From contig JAGVEX010000006.1 in assembly GCA_020057885.1 (NCBI GenBank), positions 23,850 through 87,849 of the forward strand: a DNA stretch of 64,000 nucleotides, in the 5' to 3' direction. The stretch is from a bacterium. Its GTDB lineage: Bacteria; Patescibacteriota; Patescibacteriia; Veblenbacterales; UBA10138. The translations under genes were made by a program, and so were the position numbers. The notes beneath the pieces are model-generated. The model saw only the letters and a program-made list of their open reading frames with translations, was not told where the DNA came from and did not search any database. Below, piece after piece: positions 3-32,109 of this stretch (the first letter of the stretch is position 1; each line of letters begins with the position of its first letter).

Positions 3-668
3 TTGGACGTTAAATTTAAAGACCAAGATTTATTGCGGCAGTCTTTGGTGCATCGTTCTTATTTAAATGAGAATCCTGGTTTTCCCTTACCCCATAATGA
101 AAGATTGGAATTTTTAGGTGACGCTGTACTGGAATTAGTAGTTACAGAATATTTATATCAACATTATCCTAATCCCGAAGGCGAGCTTACCAACTGGCGT
201 GCGGCTTTGGTAAACGCCATTATGCTTTCCGGCATCGCCGCTGGTTTGGGGCTGGAGGATTATCTTTATTTATCCCGCGGTGAGGCTAAAGATAGCGGTA
301 GTAAAGCGCGACAGTACATTTTAGCTAATGCCATAGAAGCTGTGATAGGCGCTATCTATTTAGATCAGGGCATGGCGGCAACTGCCAAGTTTATTCATCA
401 GTGCGTAATTTCCAAATTTCCCGAGGTGTTAAAACAAAAATCTTATCTTGATCCTAAAAGCCGTTTTCAGGAATTGGCGCAGGAGATTTATGGCATTACC
501 CCGAGCTATTTGGTGCTAGATGAGCACGGGCCGGATCACGCTAAAGAATTTAAAGTCGGGCTTTATTTGGGTGAGGAATTAGTGACTGAGGGAGTGGGAT
601 CTTCTAAGCAAGAGGCCCAAGTAGCCGCCGCCGCCGAAGGCTTGAAAGTGAAAAAGTGGAATAATTAG
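3..668 (+). CDS. rnc: Ribonuclease III, N-terminally truncated by window edge
   Basis: RNase III signature ERLEFLGDAVLELVVTEYLY and C-terminal dsRBD-like segment; ORF open at window start. Confidence 0.85.
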   Translation: MDVKFKDQDLLRQSLVHRSYLNENPGFPLPHNERLEFLGDAVLELVVTEYLYQHYPNPEGELTNWRAALVNAIMLSGIAAGLGLEDYLYLSRGEAKDSGSKARQYILANAIEAVIGAIYLDQGMAATAKFIHQCVISKFPEVLKQKSYLDPKSRFQELAQEIYGITPSYLVLDEHGPDHAKEFKVGLYLGEELVTEGVGSSKQEAQVAAAAEGLKVKKWNN

Positions 669-1356: not shown

Positions 1357-3951
1357 ATGTATCTTCAGAAATTAGAAATCCAAGGTTTTAAATCGTTTGC
1401 CAGTAAAACCACTTTAGAATTCAATCGCCAACTAACGGCGGTGGTTGGCCCCAATGGCTCAGGCAAGTCCAACATTGCCGATGCTATACGCTGGGTACTG
1501 GGTGAGCAATCTTTAAAACTTTTGCGTGGTAAGCGAGCGGAGGATGTAATTTTTGCCGGGAGCGATTTAAAGAGCCGTTTGGGCATGGCGGAAGTTTCGC
1601 TTTATTTAAATAATGAAGATGGCCAAGCGCCCATTGATTTTTCTGAAATTGTGGTGACTAGGCGGATATTCCGCGATGGTCAAAGTGAATATTTATTAAA
1701 CCAATCGCCTATTAGATTGCAGGATATTCAATTGCTTTTGGCGCGGGCGCATTTTGGTCAAAAAACTTATAGCGTTATTGGGCAGGGAATGATAGATTCC
1801 ATTCTTTTGGCCAGCCCAGCCGAACGCAAAGAATTTTTTGAAGAGGCCACTGGGGTTAAACAGTATCAAATCAAGCGCGACCAAGCTATTCAAAAACTTA
1901 CTACCACTTACGAAAATTTAGAGCAAGCCGAAGCAGTAGTGCAAGAAATTGAACCACGTTTGCGTGCCTTAACCAGGCAGGTAAAACGTTTGGAGCGTCG
2001 CGAAGAATTAGAGCGAGAGCTTAGGGAGATGCAAAAGCTTTATTTTAGAGCGCGTTTTTTTGAGCTCGAAGGCAGGCGGCAAGAAGTTAAAATTAAGACA
2101 GATGAACACAGCGAACAATTAGTTAAACAAAAAAAAGTTACTCGTGAGCTTGAATCTAAATTAAAAGAATTAGAGGGCGCTGAGCTTGTCTCAAAACATT
2201 GGCATGAGCTGCAAGCCAAACAGACCGAATTGAGAAACAAATTATCACGTTTAGTTAAAGAGCAGGCCGTGGCGCAGGCTGAGGAAGAGGTTGGTCATAT
2301 AAAACGAGGTGAGGGCGAAGTAGCTTGGATTAAACAGCGTTTGGCCGAAATTGAGGTTGAGCAAAAAAATTTGGAGGCACGCGCTAAAGCTATTGCTGGC
2401 GAGTTAACTAACAAGCAAGATTCTTTGCAAAATAAATTGGCTGAGCAAGCTAAGGTAGTGGAAGGTTTTGACCGCTTAACAGGCGAAAGCGGCGATAAAT
2501 GGTTAATAAAGGAAATTAATAGTTTGGCGCAGGAGCAAAGTGAATTTCGTCGCCATTTGGTTCAAATAAAAAATTTAACAGAAGTGCAAAGTATGGCTGA
2601 ACGCGCTTCGACTATTGAAGATAGGCTACGCAGCCTGCTTAAACGTTTGGAGCAAGGGGGAAGGCTTTCCACTGAAGAACTTAATCGGGCTTTGTTAGAG
2701 CGTGATACTTTGGTTAATGAAGTAGCTAGCTTGCAGGCCGGCCTTAAATCATTACAACACGAGCAAATTAATTTAATTGAATCACAAAATCGCCTTAAAG
2801 AAACCAGGGTAAAAATAGAGCATTCACTTAGTGGTACAGCCAAGTCAAACAGTTCGCACTTGCCAGAAATTTCAAAAAATATTATTGAGGCTGAGAAAGA
2901 GCTTAATCAAACAGAGCACGAGCTAAATTCTTTTCAAGCGCAAGCCGAAACTCGCAAAGCGGAATTTTTTAGTATTCAGCGCGAACTTACCGCCACCACT
3001 GGTGCCGAACGCCGATTGGAGCAGGAGACGCACGAAATAACAGTCGAACTTGCTCGCTTAGAAACAAAATTAGAAGATTTAGAGCGCGAAATGGCACAGG
3101 AAGTGCCCTCTGAATTGGTGCACGAAATTAAGACCCCAGGAACCGTTACCGCCATTGATGAAGGTGGTGTGGCGCTGGAGCTCCAAAAACTTAAACACCA
3201 ATTAGAGTTAACTGGTGGTATTGAACCTGAGGTGGTAACAGAGTATCAGCAAACCAAAACACGCTATGATTTTATTAATAACCAGCTGACAGATTTAAAA
3301 ACAGCCATCGGCTCGTTGGAAAGTGTTATTCGAGATTTAGATGAAACTATTCAGAAGAAATTTTTATTGAGTTTTAAAGCAATTAATGAAAAGTTTAGTA
3401 AATATTTCCAGCTTTTATTTAGCGGTGGCAAGGCGCAGTTGGTACTGCAAAAAGAGGAGCCTAAAAAAGAACCGGAAGAAGTTGAGGAGGGGGCGGAGTT
3501 GGCTGAAGACGAAGAAGTGCCTAAACTTGGTATAAAAGATAAGTTTTTGCAACAAGAGCGGCTGAGAGCCTCGCTTTTTTCCGGAGTGGAAATGAGCGCT
3601 ACGCCGCCAGGCAAAAAACTTTCTTCTATTAACGCTCTTTCGGGCGGCGAAAAAGCCCTTACTTCTATTGCGCTTATTTGTTCAATTATTTCTAATAACC
3701 CTTCACCTTTTGTTGCGCTGGATGAAGTTGATGCCGCTTTAGACGAAGCTAACTCCGAACGTTTTGCCGCTATTTTAGATTCATTAATGAGTGAAACGCA
3801 ATTTATTACTATTACCCATAACCGAGCTACTATGAAAAAAGCCGCTATTCTTTATGGTGTAACTATGGGCGAAGATGGCGTTTCTAAACTTTTGTCAGTT
3901 AAATTGGACGAAGCCAAAGAAATGGTGGGTACTTCAAAAAAACGCGTTTAG
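1357..3951 (+). CDS. smc: Chromosome segregation SMC-family ATPase (short, 864 aa)
   Basis: N-terminal Walker A FKSFA..VVGPNGSGKSNIADAIRWVLGEQS; long coiled-coil; C-terminal ABC signature LSGGEKALTSIAL and Walker B ALDEVDAALD. Confidence 0.8.
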   Translation: MYLQKLEIQGFKSFASKTTLEFNRQLTAVVGPNGSGKSNIADAIRWVLGEQSLKLLRGKRAEDVIFAGSDLKSRLGMAEVSLYLNNEDGQAPIDFSEIVVTRRIFRDGQSEYLLNQSPIRLQDIQLLLARAHFGQKTYSVIGQGMIDSILLASPAERKEFFEEATGVKQYQIKRDQAIQKLTTTYENLEQAEAVVQEIEPRLRALTRQVKRLERREELERELREMQKLYFRARFFELEGRRQEVKIKTDEHSEQLVKQKKVTRELESKLKELEGAELVSKHWHELQAKQTELRNKLSRLVKEQAVAQAEEEVGHIKRGEGEVAWIKQRLAEIEVEQKNLEARAKAIAGELTNKQDSLQNKLAEQAKVVEGFDRLTGESGDKWLIKEINSLAQEQSEFRRHLVQIKNLTEVQSMAERASTIEDRLRSLLKRLEQGGRLSTEELNRALLERDTLVNEVASLQAGLKSLQHEQINLIESQNRLKETRVKIEHSLSGTAKSNSSHLPEISKNIIEAEKELNQTEHELNSFQAQAETRKAEFFSIQRELTATTGAERRLEQETHEITVELARLETKLEDLEREMAQEVPSELVHEIKTPGTVTAIDEGGVALELQKLKHQLELTGGIEPEVVTEYQQTKTRYDFINNQLTDLKTAIGSLESVIRDLDETIQKKFLLSFKAINEKFSKYFQLLFSGGKAQLVLQKEEPKKEPEEVEEGAELAEDEEVPKLGIKDKFLQQERLRASLFSGVEMSATPPGKKLSSINALSGGEKALTSIALICSIISNNPSPFVALDEVDAALDEANSERFAAILDSLMSETQFITITHNRATMKKAAILYGVTMGEDGVSKLLSVKLDEAKEMVGTSKKRV

Positions 3952-28199: not shown

Positions 28200-28568
28200 A
28201 TGCCAATACTTCTCTACAATTCATCAACGTTACTGTCAAGCTTACTAATGCTGGTGGTTTTATTAAAGATGGCAACCACAGAAGTTTCCAATATATTAAA
28301 ATATCAAGATGTAACATTTGATTTGTCACCTGAGCGTGTTATTACAAATTTAATACAGATAACCAAGGCTGAGAAGGTAGAGCACGAAAGAGAAAAACGT
28401 GAATATGATACGCACACTGAAGAAGTTAAATTGATAGCTGAGTGGCGTACTTATAAAATTACCCCGACAATTATCTTTCGTGGCCAGCGGGGGGAGAATA
28501 GAAACTTTAACTTAGCTCATTCTTGGTCTCACCGTATGTATAATTATCAACCGTTAAATATTATTTAG
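28200..28568 (+). CDS. Hypothetical protein with N-terminal TM segment
   Basis: ORF only; no family recognised. Confidence 0.35.
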   Translation: MPILLYNSSTLLSSLLMLVVLLKMATTEVSNILKYQDVTFDLSPERVITNLIQITKAEKVEHEREKREYDTHTEEVKLIAEWRTYKITPTIIFRGQRGENRNFNLAHSWSHRMYNYQPLNII

Positions 28569-28726
28569 TGATTAATATAACCCCGCGGCCGTGGGGTGGC
28601 TGGAATCGGGAAGGTAAACACAGAACACAAACTGGGCAAGAGCCCAGTTTGTGTTATTTGCCCTGAGGGCTATTTTTTGGTAGAGTATTGTTTGCTATAA
28701 TCTACTATAATAAATATAAGTGGCCT

Positions 28727-28823
28727 GGTAGCTCATCACTCCGCGAGACCTAGCGTAGCTACGGCAAGCAGTAAGGCAGAGGTCTGTCCCGCTACGCGGG
28801 ATCTGGCGTAGCCATGACAAAAC
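28727..28823. repeat. Two tandem units (type A then type B) of a roughly 45-nt two-hairpin repeat, upstream of the GIY-YIG ORF
   Basis: U1 tcactccgcgagacc-TAGCgtaGCTA-cggcaa; U2 ggtctgtcccgctacgcgggatc-TGGCgtaGCCA-tgacaaaac; related units occur at 29166-29265. Confidence 0.6.
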
Positions 28824-28831
28824 TATTGTTT

Positions 28832-29086
28832 ATGAAGTATTACGTCTACATTTTAGTTAGTCTGGCAAATGATGATATTTATGTAGGTAGTACAGCCGAT
28901 GTTCAAGTTCGCCTTCACTTACATAATCAAGGTAAGGTAAAATCTACTAAAGGATATCGCCCTTGGCGTTTATTGGAGTATTATGAGTATATAACACGTG
29001 CTGAAGCAGTTAAAGCTGAACGGTTTTATAAATCTCATCACCAAAAAGAAATATTAAAAAATAAATATGGCCATGTGGTGAAGTAG
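28832..29086 (+). CDS. GIY-YIG nuclease family protein (small standalone, UPF0213/YhbQ-like)
   Basis: MKYYVYILVSLANDDIYVGSTADVQVRLHLHNQGK...RPW.L: GIY-YIG motifs; the ORF 3' end (last 18 nt including the stop) overlaps the 5' end of tRNA-Cys; the ORF track starts at 28814. Confidence 0.7.
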   Translation: MKYYVYILVSLANDDIYVGSTADVQVRLHLHNQGKVKSTKGYRPWRLLEYYEYITRAEAVKAERFYKSHHQKEILKNKYGHVVK

Positions 29087-29145
29087 TCTAACACGGCGGT
29101 CTGCAAAACCGCTATTCGCGGGTGCGAATCCCGCCATGGCCTCCA
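29069..29145 (+). tRNA. tRNA-Cys (anticodon GCA) with encoded CCA
   Basis: GGCCATGTGGTGAAGTAGTCTAACACGGCGGTCTGCAAAACCGCTATTCGCGGGTGCGAATCCCGCCATGGCCTCCA; acceptor GGCCATG/CATGGCC; anticodon stem GCGGT/ACCGC with loop CTGCAAA; T-arm GCGGG/CCCGC. Confidence 0.85.
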
Positions 29146-29165
29146 AGTAGTTAAAAATAATAGAT

Positions 29166-29265
29166 GGTCTGTCCCGCTACGTGGGATCTCCCGTAGGGAC
29201 GACAAAACCTCTATACATGGGTGTCTCACTCCGCGAGATCTGGCGTAGCCACGACAATTTTCTTG
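29166..29265. repeat. Two further units (type B then type A) of the two-hairpin repeat, downstream of tRNA-Cys
   Basis: U3 ggtctgtcccgctacgtgggatc-TCCCgtaGGGA-cgacaaaacc; U4 tctcactccgcgagatc-TGGCgtaGCCA-cgacaatttt; the 4-bp stem of the GTA-loop hairpin varies with compensatory changes. Confidence 0.6.
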
Positions 29266-29349
29266 TCTGACGAGGCCAGATGCCCAGGCCTCCATTACGT
29301 TACAATTGCCATCCGCCACTGGTGGGTGGTTTTATGATAAACTAATATT

Positions 29350-32109
29350 ATGCCCAGTATTCCCAAATTGGTTATTTTTGACGGCAATGCGTTATTACAT
29401 CGCGCTTTTCATGCCCTTCCGCCATTCACTACCCGTGACGGCATGTTAGTAAATGCGGTGTATGGATTTACTACGATTTTTTTACGCGTGTTAAAAGAAC
29501 TAAAGCCGGAATATGTGGCAGTAACTTTTGATAGAAAAGAAGCAACCTTTCGCCACGAGGCTTTTAAGGAGTATAAAGCTCAGCGCGTTAAACAACCACA
29601 GGAACTTTATGACCAAATTCCCTGGATAAAAAAAATCATATCGGCTTTTCGTTTGCCAGTTTTTGAGATGGCAGGGTTTGAAGCAGATGATGTTATAGGT
29701 ACTATTGCTGAAAAAGTTGGACATACTACCGCGCCCATAGAAACTATTATTGTTACAGGTGATTTAGATACCCTACAATTAATTGATGATCATACTAAAG
29801 TTTATACTTTGAAACGGGGTATGAACGATACCATAATTTATGATGAGGCGGCGGTTAAAGAACGCTATGGTTTGCAGCCCGCACAATTAATTGATTTTAA
29901 AGCTTTACGAGGCGATCCCTCGGATAATATTCCAGGCGTTAAAGGCATTGGAGAAAAAACCGCTTTAGAGCTTATAAAAGAGTTTAACAGTATAAAAGGA
30001 ATTTATACCGCTTTGCATAAAAGTGATAGCGCATTTGAAAATTTTTCCGTCAAAGTAGTGGAACTACTAAAGAATTTTGAACCAGAGGCCGAGCTTTCCC
30101 AAAAACTTGTCACTATTGTAAGAAATGTTGAGTTTGATTTTAATTTGGATAGCTGTAAATTACAGGCTTTTGATAACGCTAAATTAGTGGAACTTTTTCA
30201 GCGTTTAGAATTTAAATCTCTACTGTCTAAAATTCCTGAGTTACAACAAAAATTAGAACTTAAATCTCCCAATGAATCCGGTGTCACAGCAGTTGGTCGG
30301 CCGAATCATGGAAAATATCATTTGATTGAATCAGAAACTGAACTGGGGGAGTTAGTAAATAAAATTAAGCACGCGGGTGAATTTACTTTTGATACCGAAA
30401 CCACTGCGCTTGATCCTTGGCAGAGTGAATTAGTGGGTATTAGCATAGCTGTTAAAGCTGGTGAAGCTTATTTTATTAAAAAATCATTAGTTATTTTAAA
30501 GAGTAAGGCTTGGGCAGAATTAGCAGCTTTATTTAATGATAAAAAAATATCCAAAATCGCTCATAATGCCAAATTTGATCTAGAGGTATTAAGAGCCGCC
30601 GGGCAAGAAGTGAGTGGTGTTTACTTTGATACTTTAATAGCGGCTTATTTAATAAAATCCGGTGAGCGCGTGCTTGATTTAAAATCACTTGTTTTTCAGG
30701 AACTGGGCGTGGAAATGCAAACTATTGAGGAATTGATTGGTAAAAAAGGCAAAGGGCAAAAAAATATGTCCGAAGTGCCTATAGCAGAAGTTACTCAATA
30801 TGCTTGCGCGGACGCTGATTTTACCTTGCGTTTGAAAGATAAACTAGAACCAGAACTTAAGTCTGCTAAATTATTGGAATTGTTTAATGAGGTAGAAATG
30901 CCTTTAGTGCCGGTACTGGCGCAAATAGAAGAAGCTGGTATAAAGATAAATACATCTTACTTAGCGGTGATGGAGAAAGAATTAAAAAACGAATTAGCTT
31001 CTTTAGAAAAACAAATACATAAACACGCTGGCCGAGAATTTAATATCAATTCTCCCAAACAACTTAAAGAGATTCTTTTTGACGAGCTTAAAATTTCTCC
31101 AGAAGGTTTGCGGCATACCAAAACAGGTGTTTCTACCGCGGCGGCGGAGTTAGAAAAAATGCGAGGACTTCATCCAGTAATTGAGTTGTTGTTTGGTTGG
31201 CGCGAACTTTCCAAATTACTTTCCACCTACGTGGAAGCTTTGCCCGAGTTGGTAAATAAAAAAACCGGCCGGGTGCACACAAGTTTTAATCAGACAGTCA
31301 CTGCTACCGGCAGGCTTTCATCTTCTGATCCTAATTTACAAAATATTCCTATTCGAGGCGATTGGGGCAAACGTTTGCGGCAGGCTTTTATAGCGGAAGC
31401 AGGATTTAAATTACTCTCAGCTGATTATTCGCAAATTGAACTGAGAATAGCCGCCCATTTAGCGCAGGATAAAAGGATGATTCAAATATTCAAAAATGGG
31501 GAGGATATTCACACTTCCACAGCCGCTTTTATATTTGGCATAGAGCCATCTCAAATTACACCAGACCAACGCCGTAGTGCCAAAGAAGTTAATTTTGGCG
31601 TGCTTTATGGCATGGGTGTATGGGGACTTTCGGAGCGCACCGGTATTTCACGCAGTGAGGCTAGCAGTTTTATTGATAGATATTTTAAAGCTTTTTCCGG
31701 AGTAGCCAAGTGGATTGAAGAAATTAAAATAAGCACGCGGGAGCAAGGATTTGTTACCACACTTTTGGGCAGAAAACGCAATTTACCGGAAATTAATTCA
31801 GGTATGCAGCAAGTGAGGTCGGCAGCTGAACGTATGGCTGTAAATTTGCCTATTCAAGGCACGGCCGCTGATCTTTTGAAAGTCGCTATGGTTAAGGTGG
31901 CTAAAAAATTGCCAGAAATATCCAAAAAAACTAGAATGATACTTCAAGTGCACGATGAATTAGTTTTTGAGGTGCCACAAAAGGATGTGGCCAAAGTTGC
32001 CAAGTTGGTTAAACGCGAAATGGAGCAGGCCATAAAACTCTCCGTGCCAATTGTGGTGGATGTTAAGGCGGGAGATAATTGGGGTGAGATGGAAGGCATA
32101 GCCTTGTAA
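29350..32109 (+). CDS. polA: DNA polymerase I (5'-3' exonuclease, 3'-5' exonuclease and polymerase domains)
   Basis: N-terminal LVIFDGNALLHRAFHAL; exonuclease motif FTFDTETTALDP; polymerase motifs RRSAKEVNFGVLYGMG and ILQVHDELVFEV. Confidence 0.9.
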   Translation: MPSIPKLVIFDGNALLHRAFHALPPFTTRDGMLVNAVYGFTTIFLRVLKELKPEYVAVTFDRKEATFRHEAFKEYKAQRVKQPQELYDQIPWIKKIISAFRLPVFEMAGFEADDVIGTIAEKVGHTTAPIETIIVTGDLDTLQLIDDHTKVYTLKRGMNDTIIYDEAAVKERYGLQPAQLIDFKALRGDPSDNIPGVKGIGEKTALELIKEFNSIKGIYTALHKSDSAFENFSVKVVELLKNFEPEAELSQKLVTIVRNVEFDFNLDSCKLQAFDNAKLVELFQRLEFKSLLSKIPELQQKLELKSPNESGVTAVGRPNHGKYHLIESETELGELVNKIKHAGEFTFDTETTALDPWQSELVGISIAVKAGEAYFIKKSLVILKSKAWAELAALFNDKKISKIAHNAKFDLEVLRAAGQEVSGVYFDTLIAAYLIKSGERVLDLKSLVFQELGVEMQTIEELIGKKGKGQKNMSEVPIAEVTQYACADADFTLRLKDKLEPELKSAKLLELFNEVEMPLVPVLAQIEEAGIKINTSYLAVMEKELKNELASLEKQIHKHAGREFNINSPKQLKEILFDELKISPEGLRHTKTGVSTAAAELEKMRGLHPVIELLFGWRELSKLLSTYVEALPELVNKKTGRVHTSFNQTVTATGRLSSSDPNLQNIPIRGDWGKRLRQAFIAEAGFKLLSADYSQIELRIAAHLAQDKRMIQIFKNGEDIHTSTAAFIFGIEPSQITPDQRRSAKEVNFGVLYGMGVWGLSERTGISRSEASSFIDRYFKAFSGVAKWIEEIKISTREQGFVTTLLGRKRNLPEINSGMQQVRSAAERMAVNLPIQGTAADLLKVAMVKVAKKLPEISKKTRMILQVHDELVFEVPQKDVAKVAKLVKREMEQAIKLSVPIVVDVKAGDNWGEMEGIAL

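Follow-up and report, generated by a model that had tools for sequence, protein, structure and literature searches.

A candidate mobile GIY-YIG nuclease cassette with double-hairpin units and its own tRNA-Cys in a tRNA-Cys gene of Patescibacteria

Why do a small GIY-YIG nuclease gene and an intact transfer RNA (tRNA) gene lie together between copies of a hairpin repeat, just upstream of polA, in the genome of a member of the Patescibacteria? We followed up this question in a 64-kb stretch of contig JAGVEX010000006.1 (assembly GCA_020057885.1, positions 23,850 to 87,849), hereafter the window, in which the locus under study occupies positions 28722-29294. The original prediction had described a nuclease open reading frame (ORF) and a tRNA-Cys bracketed by four hairpin repeats, and had proposed either a mobile cassette with tRNA-mimicking ends or an acquired tRNA with processing signals. 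The comparisons below favor the mobile cassette, and neither the mimicry nor the processing signals survived. From its sequence, the locus reads as a resident tRNA-Cys(GCA) gene upstream of polA, the anticodon loop of which was invaded by a cassette that brings a replacement tRNA, and we consider this descriptive anatomy very probably correct.

Relatives of the ORF were scanned for in one genome per species, and the best 80 loci of the 532 relatives found were fetched; all of the family counts below cover these 80 loci, or the 81 ORF instances in them. The 532 relatives in species-representative genomes dispose of the notion that the locus is unique, and the named ones among the 41 close homologues of the ORF are Patescibacteria. 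L-numbers denote fetched contigs or loci, with L090, L092 and L105 among the polA-anchored metagenome loci.

The interrupted outer tRNA-Cys

The flanks of the module had been taken for mimics of an acceptor stem. After removal of the four repeat units (U1-U4), the outer sequence consists of GGCCTGGTAGC, CAAGCAGTAAGGCAGAGGTCTG, CAAAACCTCTATACATGGGTG and CAATT ... CCAGGCC T CCA, and 58 of its 59 nucleotides (nt) are identical to those of the intact tRNA-Cys of the related contig L002. This identity points to the flanks being the real 5′ and 3′ halves of a disrupted resident tRNA-Cys gene spanning 28722-29294, rather than look-alikes. The flanking motifs themselves had been seen correctly, with coordinates off by 3-5 nt: GGCCTGG lies at 28722-28728 and CCAGGCCTCCA at 29284-29294. 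The units had likewise been regarded as terminal repeats, whereas each of them interrupts a loop of the tRNA-Cys, namely the D, anticodon or T loop.

All features of the locus lie on the plus strand. The first segment of the outer, dead tRNA-Cys (positions 1-11; 28722-28732) contains the acceptor 5′ strand GGCCTGG, TA and GC, and continues as a seamless tRNA-Cys once the unit behind it is removed. This unit, U1 (32 nt; 28733-28764), sits in the D loop (GC/CAAG, the slash marking the junction) and is the most decayed copy, with a poor fold; the same D-loop site is also filled in L002, L012, L025, L030, L105 and others. Outer positions 12-34 follow at 28765-28786, comprising what remains of the D arm and the 5′ strand of the anticodon stem as far as C32, U33 and G34. 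Between G34 and C35 of the anticodon loop lies U2 (31 nt; 28787-28817), the position of which is shared by most of the 80 related loci. CAAAAC (outer positions 35-40) and an 8-nt spacer (28818-28831) then lead to the start codon of the GIY-YIG ORF (28832-29086), which encodes 84 amino acids from MKYYVY, where the alignment of homologues begins; a second possible start, the ATG at 28814, is inside U2 (ORF 28814-29086). The next feature is a second tRNA-Cys(GCA) (29069-29145), which is intact, with U73 and an encoded CCA, and was found by ARAGORN and by the Rfam tRNA model (63.2 bits). As originally described, the reading frame runs 18 nt into this inner tRNA (28814/28832-29086 versus 29069-29145), so that its last codons and stop are inside the tRNA.

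The ORF and the inner tRNA are thus nested in the outer anticodon loop between U2 and U3. On the right-hand side, GGTCTG (29166-29171), a 5′-truncated remnant of the outer anticodon arm, precedes U3 (31 nt; 29172-29202), the right-hand copy at G34/C35, which is 86% identical to U2 and has a compensatory change in hairpin 2. A short repeat (29054-29070 versus 29151-29167, 76%) had raised the possibility of a second remnant of the ORF tail here; this candidate was rejected on comparison with L002, L003 and L005, by which the sequence that precedes U3 proves to be a degenerate remnant of the anticodon arm, its likeness to the ORF tail probably being due to AT-rich chance. Next come outer positions 35-53 (29203-29223), which cover the 3′ part of the anticodon loop, the stem, the variable loop, the T-stem 5′ strand and TG of the T loop, and then U4 (31 nt; 29224-29254) in the T loop (GTG/CAATT); T-loop units are also found in L008, L019, L023, L027, L030, L035, L045 and L083. 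The rest of the T loop (CAATT) and a further element, U5, fill 29255-29283. U5 is a degenerate single 15-nt hairpin module (29266-29280) that replaces the T-stem 3′ strand, and an intact single hairpin, TCCGGCGAAGCCGGA, occupies the matching site in L002. The earlier count of four copies thus holds for full units and had missed this fifth half-unit. The outer gene ends with the acceptor 3′ strand CCAGGCC, the discriminator T and CCA (29284-29294), complementary to 28722-28728.

The copy in the window is old and partly decayed: U2 is the only well-formed unit and the T arm of the shell, as we call the outer tRNA remnant, is destroyed, while the ORF and the inner tRNA are intact. The inner allele differs from that of the shell, and the inner tRNA-Cys is, on its sequence, best regarded as the functional replacement copy.

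Insertions into loops, including the anticodon loop, would also arise if the outer tRNA-Cys were functional and the units, together with the ORF and the inner tRNA, were removed from its precursor, in the manner of archaeal multi-intron and split tRNAs or of bacterial tRNAs with group I introns. In keeping with this, the two acceptor strands of the shell can still pair with each other, and between the window and L003 they change together (GGCCTGG/CCAGGCC versus GGCCAGG/CCTGGCC). However, every cassette examined has a tRNA-Cys that is intact and free of units, whereas the shells are truncated or decayed: the 3′ half is absent in about half of the loci, the L002 shell lacks positions 35-53 and the window shell lacks the T-stem 3′ strand. 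There is no match to a group I intron or other ribozyme even at E<=10, the naive allele in L090 (see below) is free of units, and units elsewhere are in-frame and translated in protein genes. A functional interrupted gene with both halves kept, as in archaeal-type split tRNAs, was not found here, no search for bulge-helix-bulge motifs having been made. We therefore regard splicing of the outer tRNA as very improbable indeed.

Searches for known RNA families (ribozymes, group I introns, tmRNA, CRISPR repeats) with Rfam, at E<=10 in 28300-29500 and at the gathering score in the window, returned tRNA only, and ARAGORN found no tmRNA. Visual inspection of the unit and of CTGACGAG at 29267 had raised the idea of a hammerhead-like three-way junction, which was rejected, since the core motifs are absent and Rfam gave no match.

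Downstream of the shell, a terminator-like hairpin with a T run (29308-29336), also present in L002 and L003, marks the end of the old tRNA-Cys transcription unit, and the polA ATG follows directly at 29350. Hairpins with CCACCC/GGGTGG-type stems and T runs bracket the cassette region (window 28580-28600 and 29308-29330) and recur in L002 (1870-1890 and 2560-2585) and L003 (3475-3500). They follow the upstream gene and the shell, and have the appearance of a terminator motif typical of the lineage.

Occupied and empty sites, and the family-wide architecture

The original prediction had proposed a search for empty sites in relatives, and two were found. In L090 and L092, polA is preceded at 60-65 nt by a plain tRNA-Cys that lacks both ORF and units; in L090, the order is plain tRNA-Cys, hairpin and polA. 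This arrangement probably represents the ancestral state of the window's shell. The L090 allele has an occupied counterpart in L105: identity between the two is 99.9% across 1153 nt on the upstream side and 99.7% across 716 nt on the downstream side, yet after tRNA position 11 L105 has 496 nt of inserted sequence, made up of a unit, CAAGTAGTAAGGC, the GIY-YIG ORF and a foreign rbfA 3′ fragment. CAAGTAGTAAGGC is the resident D-loop sequence, kept in the displaced fragment, and the ORF is truncated near residue 72. The intact tRNA-Cys after the insertion carries two single-nucleotide polymorphisms (SNPs) in its D loop. Since L090 has neither the unit nor the SNPs, its empty allele is no simple revertant. 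Occupied and empty alleles with co-conversion of the flank, as looked for in homing, were thus found in one pair, L105/L090. In L105, the 3′ end of the rbfA-like gene (1390-1649, ending in LRIRPVPKMYFVVDDTEVEASKIEKLIDSVEIIPAEEEKTEE and a stop codon) is directly before the restored tRNA-Cys. Because rbfA lies just upstream of the cassette in L006 and L019, the insert in L105 may have come from a genome with that gene order.

The fetched loci share one general layout. An intact tRNA-Cys(GCA), often followed by tRNA-Leu(UAA), begins at most 30 nt from the ORF core in 76 of the 80 loci. The stop codon is inside the tRNA in 63 of the 81 ORF instances, and many homologues end in KYG(H/L/Q)V(A/V)K, the translated tRNA 5′ end. 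On the left side, the series in nearly all loci is a tRNA-Cys 5′ fragment with GGTCTG at its end, a unit, CAAAAC and a start codon within about 10 nt; the canonical junction is a unit, CAAAAC, 0-10 nt and ATG. A strict finder recovered the upstream 5′ fragment with its unit in 60 of the 81 instances, and an extra D-loop unit in this fragment is common across loci. On the right side, a 5′-truncated remnant ending in GGTCTG, a unit, CAAAAC and the 3′ half are present in ~37 instances, or in about half the loci, and a T-loop unit often accompanies them. The layout of the window, which had been described as A-B-ORF-tRNA-B-A, appears on these comparisons to be the full form of this architecture, with the shorter forms explained by deletions between direct repeats, which we take to be how they arose. 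L002, for example, has a U3/U4 recombinant in which shell positions 35-53 are gone.

Serial or nested shells are found in L020, L027 and L021, with different alleles in the first two, and tandem cassettes in L021 and L050. The identity between shell and inner tRNA ranges from 100% to ~70% across loci, so the alleles are mosaic. The window and L002 share the shell, the units and the ORF (81% identity), and differ in the alleles of the inner tRNA. In addition, paralogues of the nuclease (~40% identity) occupy tRNA-Ser(GCU) genes in the same layout (tRNA 5′ fragment, hairpin, ORF, intact tRNA), with a different hairpin, CCTGCCTGCCGGYAGGCAGG; such layouts were seen in L036 (~150-520, minus strand), L066, L019 and L076 (2350-2860). 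L076 has a Cys-type ORF at tRNA-Ser with TCT...AGA units, again at G34/C35, and a paralogue in L021 has TCA...TGA stems. Together with the CCTGCCTGCCGGYAGGCAGG hairpins, these cases indicate that the hairpin type tracks the nuclease clade, not the tRNA target. The genomic contexts of the cassettes also differ. Many loci have rbfA/IF-2 on the 5′ side and tRNA-Leu(UAA) on the 3′ side, and the neighbor in the lineage of the window is polA.

Some cassette contigs (L009, L060 and that of protein P0037) are labelled as Pacearchaeota, Nanoarchaeota, Nitrososphaeraceae archaea or Gammaproteobacteria. In L009 and L060, ARAGORN places a tRNA-Leu(UAA) just 3′ of the tRNA-Cys, as in Patescibacteria loci, and mis-binning is likely. 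In L003 (3001-3057), the aligned start is ATT, and the deposited 104-residue product P0003 begins inside the tRNA shell and translates the unit (MGVRLPFGRSPVGTTKPSF...); its N-terminus is either an annotation artefact or a real extension.

Could the nuclease instead be a domesticated host gene, inherited vertically as, for example, a repair or structure-specific nuclease co-transcribed with tRNA-Cys, with the fragments and hairpins as relics of ancient tandem duplications and palindrome-prone repair and no ongoing mobility? The ratio of nonsynonymous to synonymous substitutions (dN/dS) of the ORF is 0.06-0.18, its catalytic residues are invariant across deep lineages, the neighbors (rbfA/IF-2, tRNA-Leu(UAA), polA) are conserved, YhbQ-type proteins elsewhere are ordinary chromosomal genes, and no viral copies were found. 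Such a history does not readily account for the occupied/empty polymorphism in 99.9%-identical backgrounds, with the foreign rbfA fragment and the D-loop SNPs; for the mosaic and nested shells, the tandem cassettes of different clades and the re-targeting to tRNA-Ser; or for the differing inner tRNA alleles of the window and L002 despite their common shell and ORF. The distribution is also patchy, with 532 species-level genomes in a much larger phylum. We hence consider passive inheritance unlikely. The occupied and empty sites in near-identical backgrounds, the nested shells and the differing genomic contexts suggest that the module behaves as a mobile GIY-YIG/tRNA cassette, as had been proposed.

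The double-hairpin units

We next consider the units. A covariance model, R1, was built from 53 units of many genomes and replaces bare pattern matching. In the window, it found exactly four sites, 28734-28763, 28787-28816, 29172-29201 and 29224-29253 (U1 to U4), with scores of 28.5, 45.0, 41.6 and 40.1 bits, respectively, and E values of 4e-6 to 3e-11, the last for U2. Repeat finding also recovered the four related units that had been reported. A simple consensus pattern is weakly above chance in the window (4 matches versus 1.05 expected; 3 of 100 shuffles had at least 4), and the strength of the observation therefore comes from the covariance model and the comparative data.

The canonical unit is 30 nt long and consists of two 15-nt hairpins, TCTNNC-TNY-GNNAGA and TCTNNC-RNA-GNNAGA; the modules are GC-rich and mostly in pairs. 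The compensatory changes noted earlier in the stems of hairpin 2 (TAGC/GCTA, TGGC/GCCA, TCCC/GGGA) are present, and the suggestion that the structure rather than the sequence is conserved is borne out by strong covariation across the 53 distinct units: 94.2% of the pair cells are standard pairs, compared with 75.5% in shuffles and 19-52% with slid partners, and double-sided changes occur in 7 of the 12 pairs, with 111 compensatory cells. The two-hairpin fold as originally drawn applies to U2 (-8.5 kcal/mol, z -2.4), while U1, U3 and U4 are partly decayed. A separate "type A" of hairpin 1 (TCTC-actccgc-GAGA) dissolved on inspection, being the canonical 15-nt TCTCNC-NNN-GNGAGA with an A.C mismatch. 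The consensus reads the same as its reverse complement, and model searches score the two strands about alike. Loop 1 is TNY and loop 2 RNA in all 53 units, and these loop classes alone are symmetric; exact complementarity of the two loops within a unit was rejected (16 of 53 observed versus 13.4 +/- 3.0 expected).

Most of the ~175 unit sites in the cassette-bearing loci are beside the ORF, with ~7 outside cassettes. No unit outside the cassette was found elsewhere in the 64-kb window, nor in 294 kb of polA-anchored control loci chosen without regard to the nuclease, except in the sole cassette-bearing locus among them (L105). Units are nested in other units in L005, L015, L036, L060 and L076, and the insertion sites have a common G/CAA or G/AAA flavor. 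The left and right units of one locus are at least 90% identical in 13 of 20 cases, compared with a mean of 71% between loci. Units of 30 nt are also inserted in-frame and read through in the IF-2 genes of L071 and L016 and in an ORF of 235 amino acids in L071; the IF-2 sites differ between the two, each gene lacking the other's insertion. The unit in L071 IF-2 adds 10 residues (AYQAVVG, then the inserted LPSGDLPKGD, then KMITFLDTPGHEAF), the insertion in L016 IF-2 reads LSIYDRSPAG and that in the other L071 ORF reads SLREISRREK. These in-frame units (L071 1047-1076 and 3422-3451; L016 1359-1388) are all within ~1.5 kb of a cassette.

The alternative is that the units work at the RNA level: in an acquired or duplicated tRNA operon, the double hairpins would be 5′ or 3′ stabilizers of the transcript, or RNase sites parting the nuclease mRNA from the tRNA. 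The start codon always has a unit 10-25 nt before it and the inner tRNA often has one after it, a single transcription unit lies between a promoter-like region and the terminator, and the stems covary, as expected of any selected hairpin. On the other hand, an RNA function does not predict a consensus that is its own reverse complement with equal scores on both strands, nor units that interrupt D and T loops in dead tRNA fragments or lie within other units and in-frame in IF-2 and another gene. Moreover, the units have no Rfam family match, and those in the window are partly decayed while the ORF and tRNA are intact. For the same reasons, the processing signals suggested earlier fit poorly. 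We judge an RNA-level role distinctly unlikely.

Taken together, the self-complementary consensus, the locations in dead tRNA fragments and in other units, and the in-frame insertions in protein genes favor a DNA-level element over an RNA signal. The units behave as palindromic DNA mini-elements that insert before CAA/AAA-type sites, in tRNA-arm loops, other units and occasionally, in-frame, protein genes. Of the features of such elements, a conserved hairpin structure and insertion at unrelated sites were observed; genome-wide high-copy dispersal was not.

The nuclease, a proposed mechanism and known systems

The ORF matches Pfam PF01541 with 56.2 bits (cut-off 22.6), residues 8-78 covering profile positions 1-74 of 78. 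Among 34 homologues, Y23, R33, H37 and E69 are invariant and Y12 and N38 at least 90% conserved (numbering of the 90-residue form). All 84 residues form the catalytic domain, and no C-terminal sequence-specific DNA-binding domain was found in them. The AlphaFold model, with a predicted local distance difference test (pLDDT) score of 90.7, has a three-stranded sheet and helices. The sequence matches among solved proteins are the UPF0213 protein BH0048 (1zg2; E 1e-10), EF2693/1ywl (6e-9), SLX1 (3e-6) and I-TevI (6e-4), and Foldseek gave E ~2e-4 for SLX1 and 1zg2, compared with 0.16 for I-TevI and 0.2 for UvrC. The best folds are 1zg2 and SLX1, the latter with template modelling (TM) scores of 0.61-0.66 and including complexes with a DNA flap and branched DNA. 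Sequence and model thus place the nuclease, in all probability, in the YhbQ/UPF0213-SLX1 branch and not with the I-TevI type, which answers the question of subgroup raised in the original prediction. This branch is known, from the titles of Protein Data Bank entries and in general, for structure-specific cleavage. Since the nuclease belongs to a structure-specific branch and lacks a DNA-binding domain, the hairpin units are natural candidates for its recognition, and they are most likely structured DNA that it recognizes or cuts.

A phage or defence origin was also considered and rejected: on the viral side there is one weak match (35%), no PHROG family includes the nuclease, and the PADLOC defence models gave marginal matches only (E 0.004-0.007, 14 bits).

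How might such a cassette spread? The nuclease would break DNA in or near the tRNA-Cys gene, or unit-bearing DNA, and repair from an occupied allele, with the shells as homology arms, would copy the whole cassette. Because the cassette carries its own tRNA-Cys, the insertion would be phenotypically silent, and the old tRNA halves would persist as shells. The ORF could be expressed as a co-transcript from the old tRNA promoter, with the RNase P cut at the inner tRNA removing the stop codon and so limiting expression. The units might be the structured substrate of the nuclease or modules that it mobilizes. We think it likely, by a fair margin over an even chance, that the module is a self-complementing, homing-type selfish cassette working in this way.

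Several points weigh against this mechanism. We infer both the cleavage activity of the nuclease and its target, and link it to the units by co-occurrence alone. By bringing back an intact tRNA-Cys, a homing nuclease would also re-create a sequence that it might cut, and a cassette with fixed ends does not predict identical left and right units without gene conversion or duplication at insertion. No viral contig was found to carry a relative, which leaves the cassette with no evident vector. Strong purifying selection, a spread across the phylum and the frequent synteny of tRNA-Cys and tRNA-Leu would also fit a domesticated, vertically inherited gene. Finally, the sole clean occupied/empty pair has a C-terminally truncated ORF, and L105 polA lacks two segments of 110 and ~118 nt (228 nt in total) that are present in L090. 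These segments (L090 2366-2475 and ~2919-3036) are ordinary-looking polA coding sequence, and the rest is 99.7-100% identical. The gaps are either an assembly defect or deletions in a decaying polA, and the L105 contig may be imperfect.

If the proposed mechanism is correct, a selfish element harmlessly invades a probably single-copy, essential tRNA gene of a minimal genome by means of a spare copy, as a bacterial counterpart to the mitochondrial cases of a mobile ORF with a duplicated gene end. It would give the widespread, poorly understood YhbQ/UPF0213 nucleases a testable role, with a fixed partner (the double hairpin) and a fixed target (tRNA-Cys or tRNA-Ser with G34 C35). Annotation is affected by the tRNA fragments, by false N-terminal extensions of ORFs through a unit (as in L003) and, in conserved proteins such as IF-2, by insertions of 10 residues. 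As traces of earlier invasions, the shells could serve as strain markers with which to track gene flow among uncultured Patescibacteria. A bolder idea, which we offer tentatively and hold to be possible rather than probable, is that nucleases of ~80 residues resembling YhbQ/SLX1, together with 15-nt hairpin modules, form an unrecognized bacterial mobile system that chooses its target by DNA structure instead of a DNA-binding domain. The nuclease would nick or cut the loops of hairpins or cruciforms (tRNA-gene arms, units, G/CAA coding sites), the modules would be copied into these loops, each nuclease clade would have its own hairpin type, and the gene would persist with a replacement tRNA that makes the invasion of an essential single-copy tRNA gene harmless. 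No description of a cassette combining CPR (candidate phyla radiation)/Patescibacteria, tRNA and GIY-YIG was found in the searchable literature.

Known systems share parts of this design. YhbQ/UPF0213 proteins are of the same single-domain size and give the best sequence matches, whereas SLX1 has a RING/PHD domain and an SLX4 partner that the cassette nuclease lacks. In contrast to YhbQ genes, that of the cassette is fixed to a tRNA gene and hairpin units; we know of no such fixed association for YhbQ genes.

Integrase islands and prophages enter tRNA genes, often at the anticodon or T loop, restoring the displaced part and leaving direct repeats. Insertion into a tRNA gene, a restored functional tRNA and direct repeats of tRNA sequence are common to both. 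Unlike them, the cassette has no integrase (no tyrosine or serine recombinase was found between the shell halves, where the GIY-YIG gene is the only ORF), its cargo is ~0.4 kb, what it restores is the 5′ portion or all of the tRNA, not the 3′ end, and its boundaries carry hairpin units of 30 nt, of which the naive allele has none. Rickettsia palindromic elements, of ~100-150 nt, can sit in-frame in protein genes and be translated, as the units can. The units are shorter (30 nt) and, instead of being dispersed in high copy, are concentrated at the nuclease/tRNA cassette, with none in the other 63 kb of the window.

In the same phylum, group I introns interrupt tRNA genes (Asn and Asp tRNAs, anticodon loop 35/36), some with HNH homing genes (PMC13011429); tRNA-Cys is not mentioned in that study. 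Anticodon-loop insertion (34/35 in the cassette) is shared, as is, for some of the introns, the carriage of a nuclease gene, whereas the cassette has no ribozyme, its exons are non-contiguous, its targets are tRNA-Cys and tRNA-Ser, its nuclease is of the GIY-YIG type, and it supplies a replacement gene instead of splicing. T4 SegB is a free-standing GIY-YIG homing endonuclease in a tRNA gene cluster (PMC2330249). The cassette resembles SegB and I-TevI in the GIY-YIG fold, in a selfish nuclease gene beside or within tRNA genes, and in a proposed spread by break repair with co-conversion of flanking markers, the co-conversion being seen here in L105. It differs in that the protein is a catalytic domain of ~80 residues with no linker or DNA-binding domain, is nearer to YhbQ/SLX1 in sequence and fold, and is chromosomal in Patescibacteria rather than phage-borne; moreover, the cassette splits its target gene, carries a full replacement tRNA and is accompanied by hairpin units.

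The remaining comparison is with mitochondria. In Allomyces atp6, a mobile endonuclease ORF reportedly carries a duplicate gene end. Such an insertion is self-complementing in the same way, bringing the displaced gene part and leaving the old part as a pseudogene; the cassette, by comparison, resides in a bacterial chromosome, targets a tRNA gene and duplicates either the 5′ part of the tRNA or all of it, not a protein C-terminus. The double-hairpin elements of fungal mitochondria (Paquin et al. 2000, as cited in PMC4478555) and the palindromic GC clusters (PMC4478555) resemble the units as short, GC-rich single or double modules in an AT-rich genome; they move, fuse or nest within one another, and accompany endonuclease ORFs. 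The modules described here are 15 nt long, with a defined TCT...AGA stem base and a tighter tie to a nuclease clade. Judged by analogy, the logic of the cassette still appears to match these mitochondrial mobile ORFs and double-hairpin/GC-cluster elements better than the homing genes of T4.

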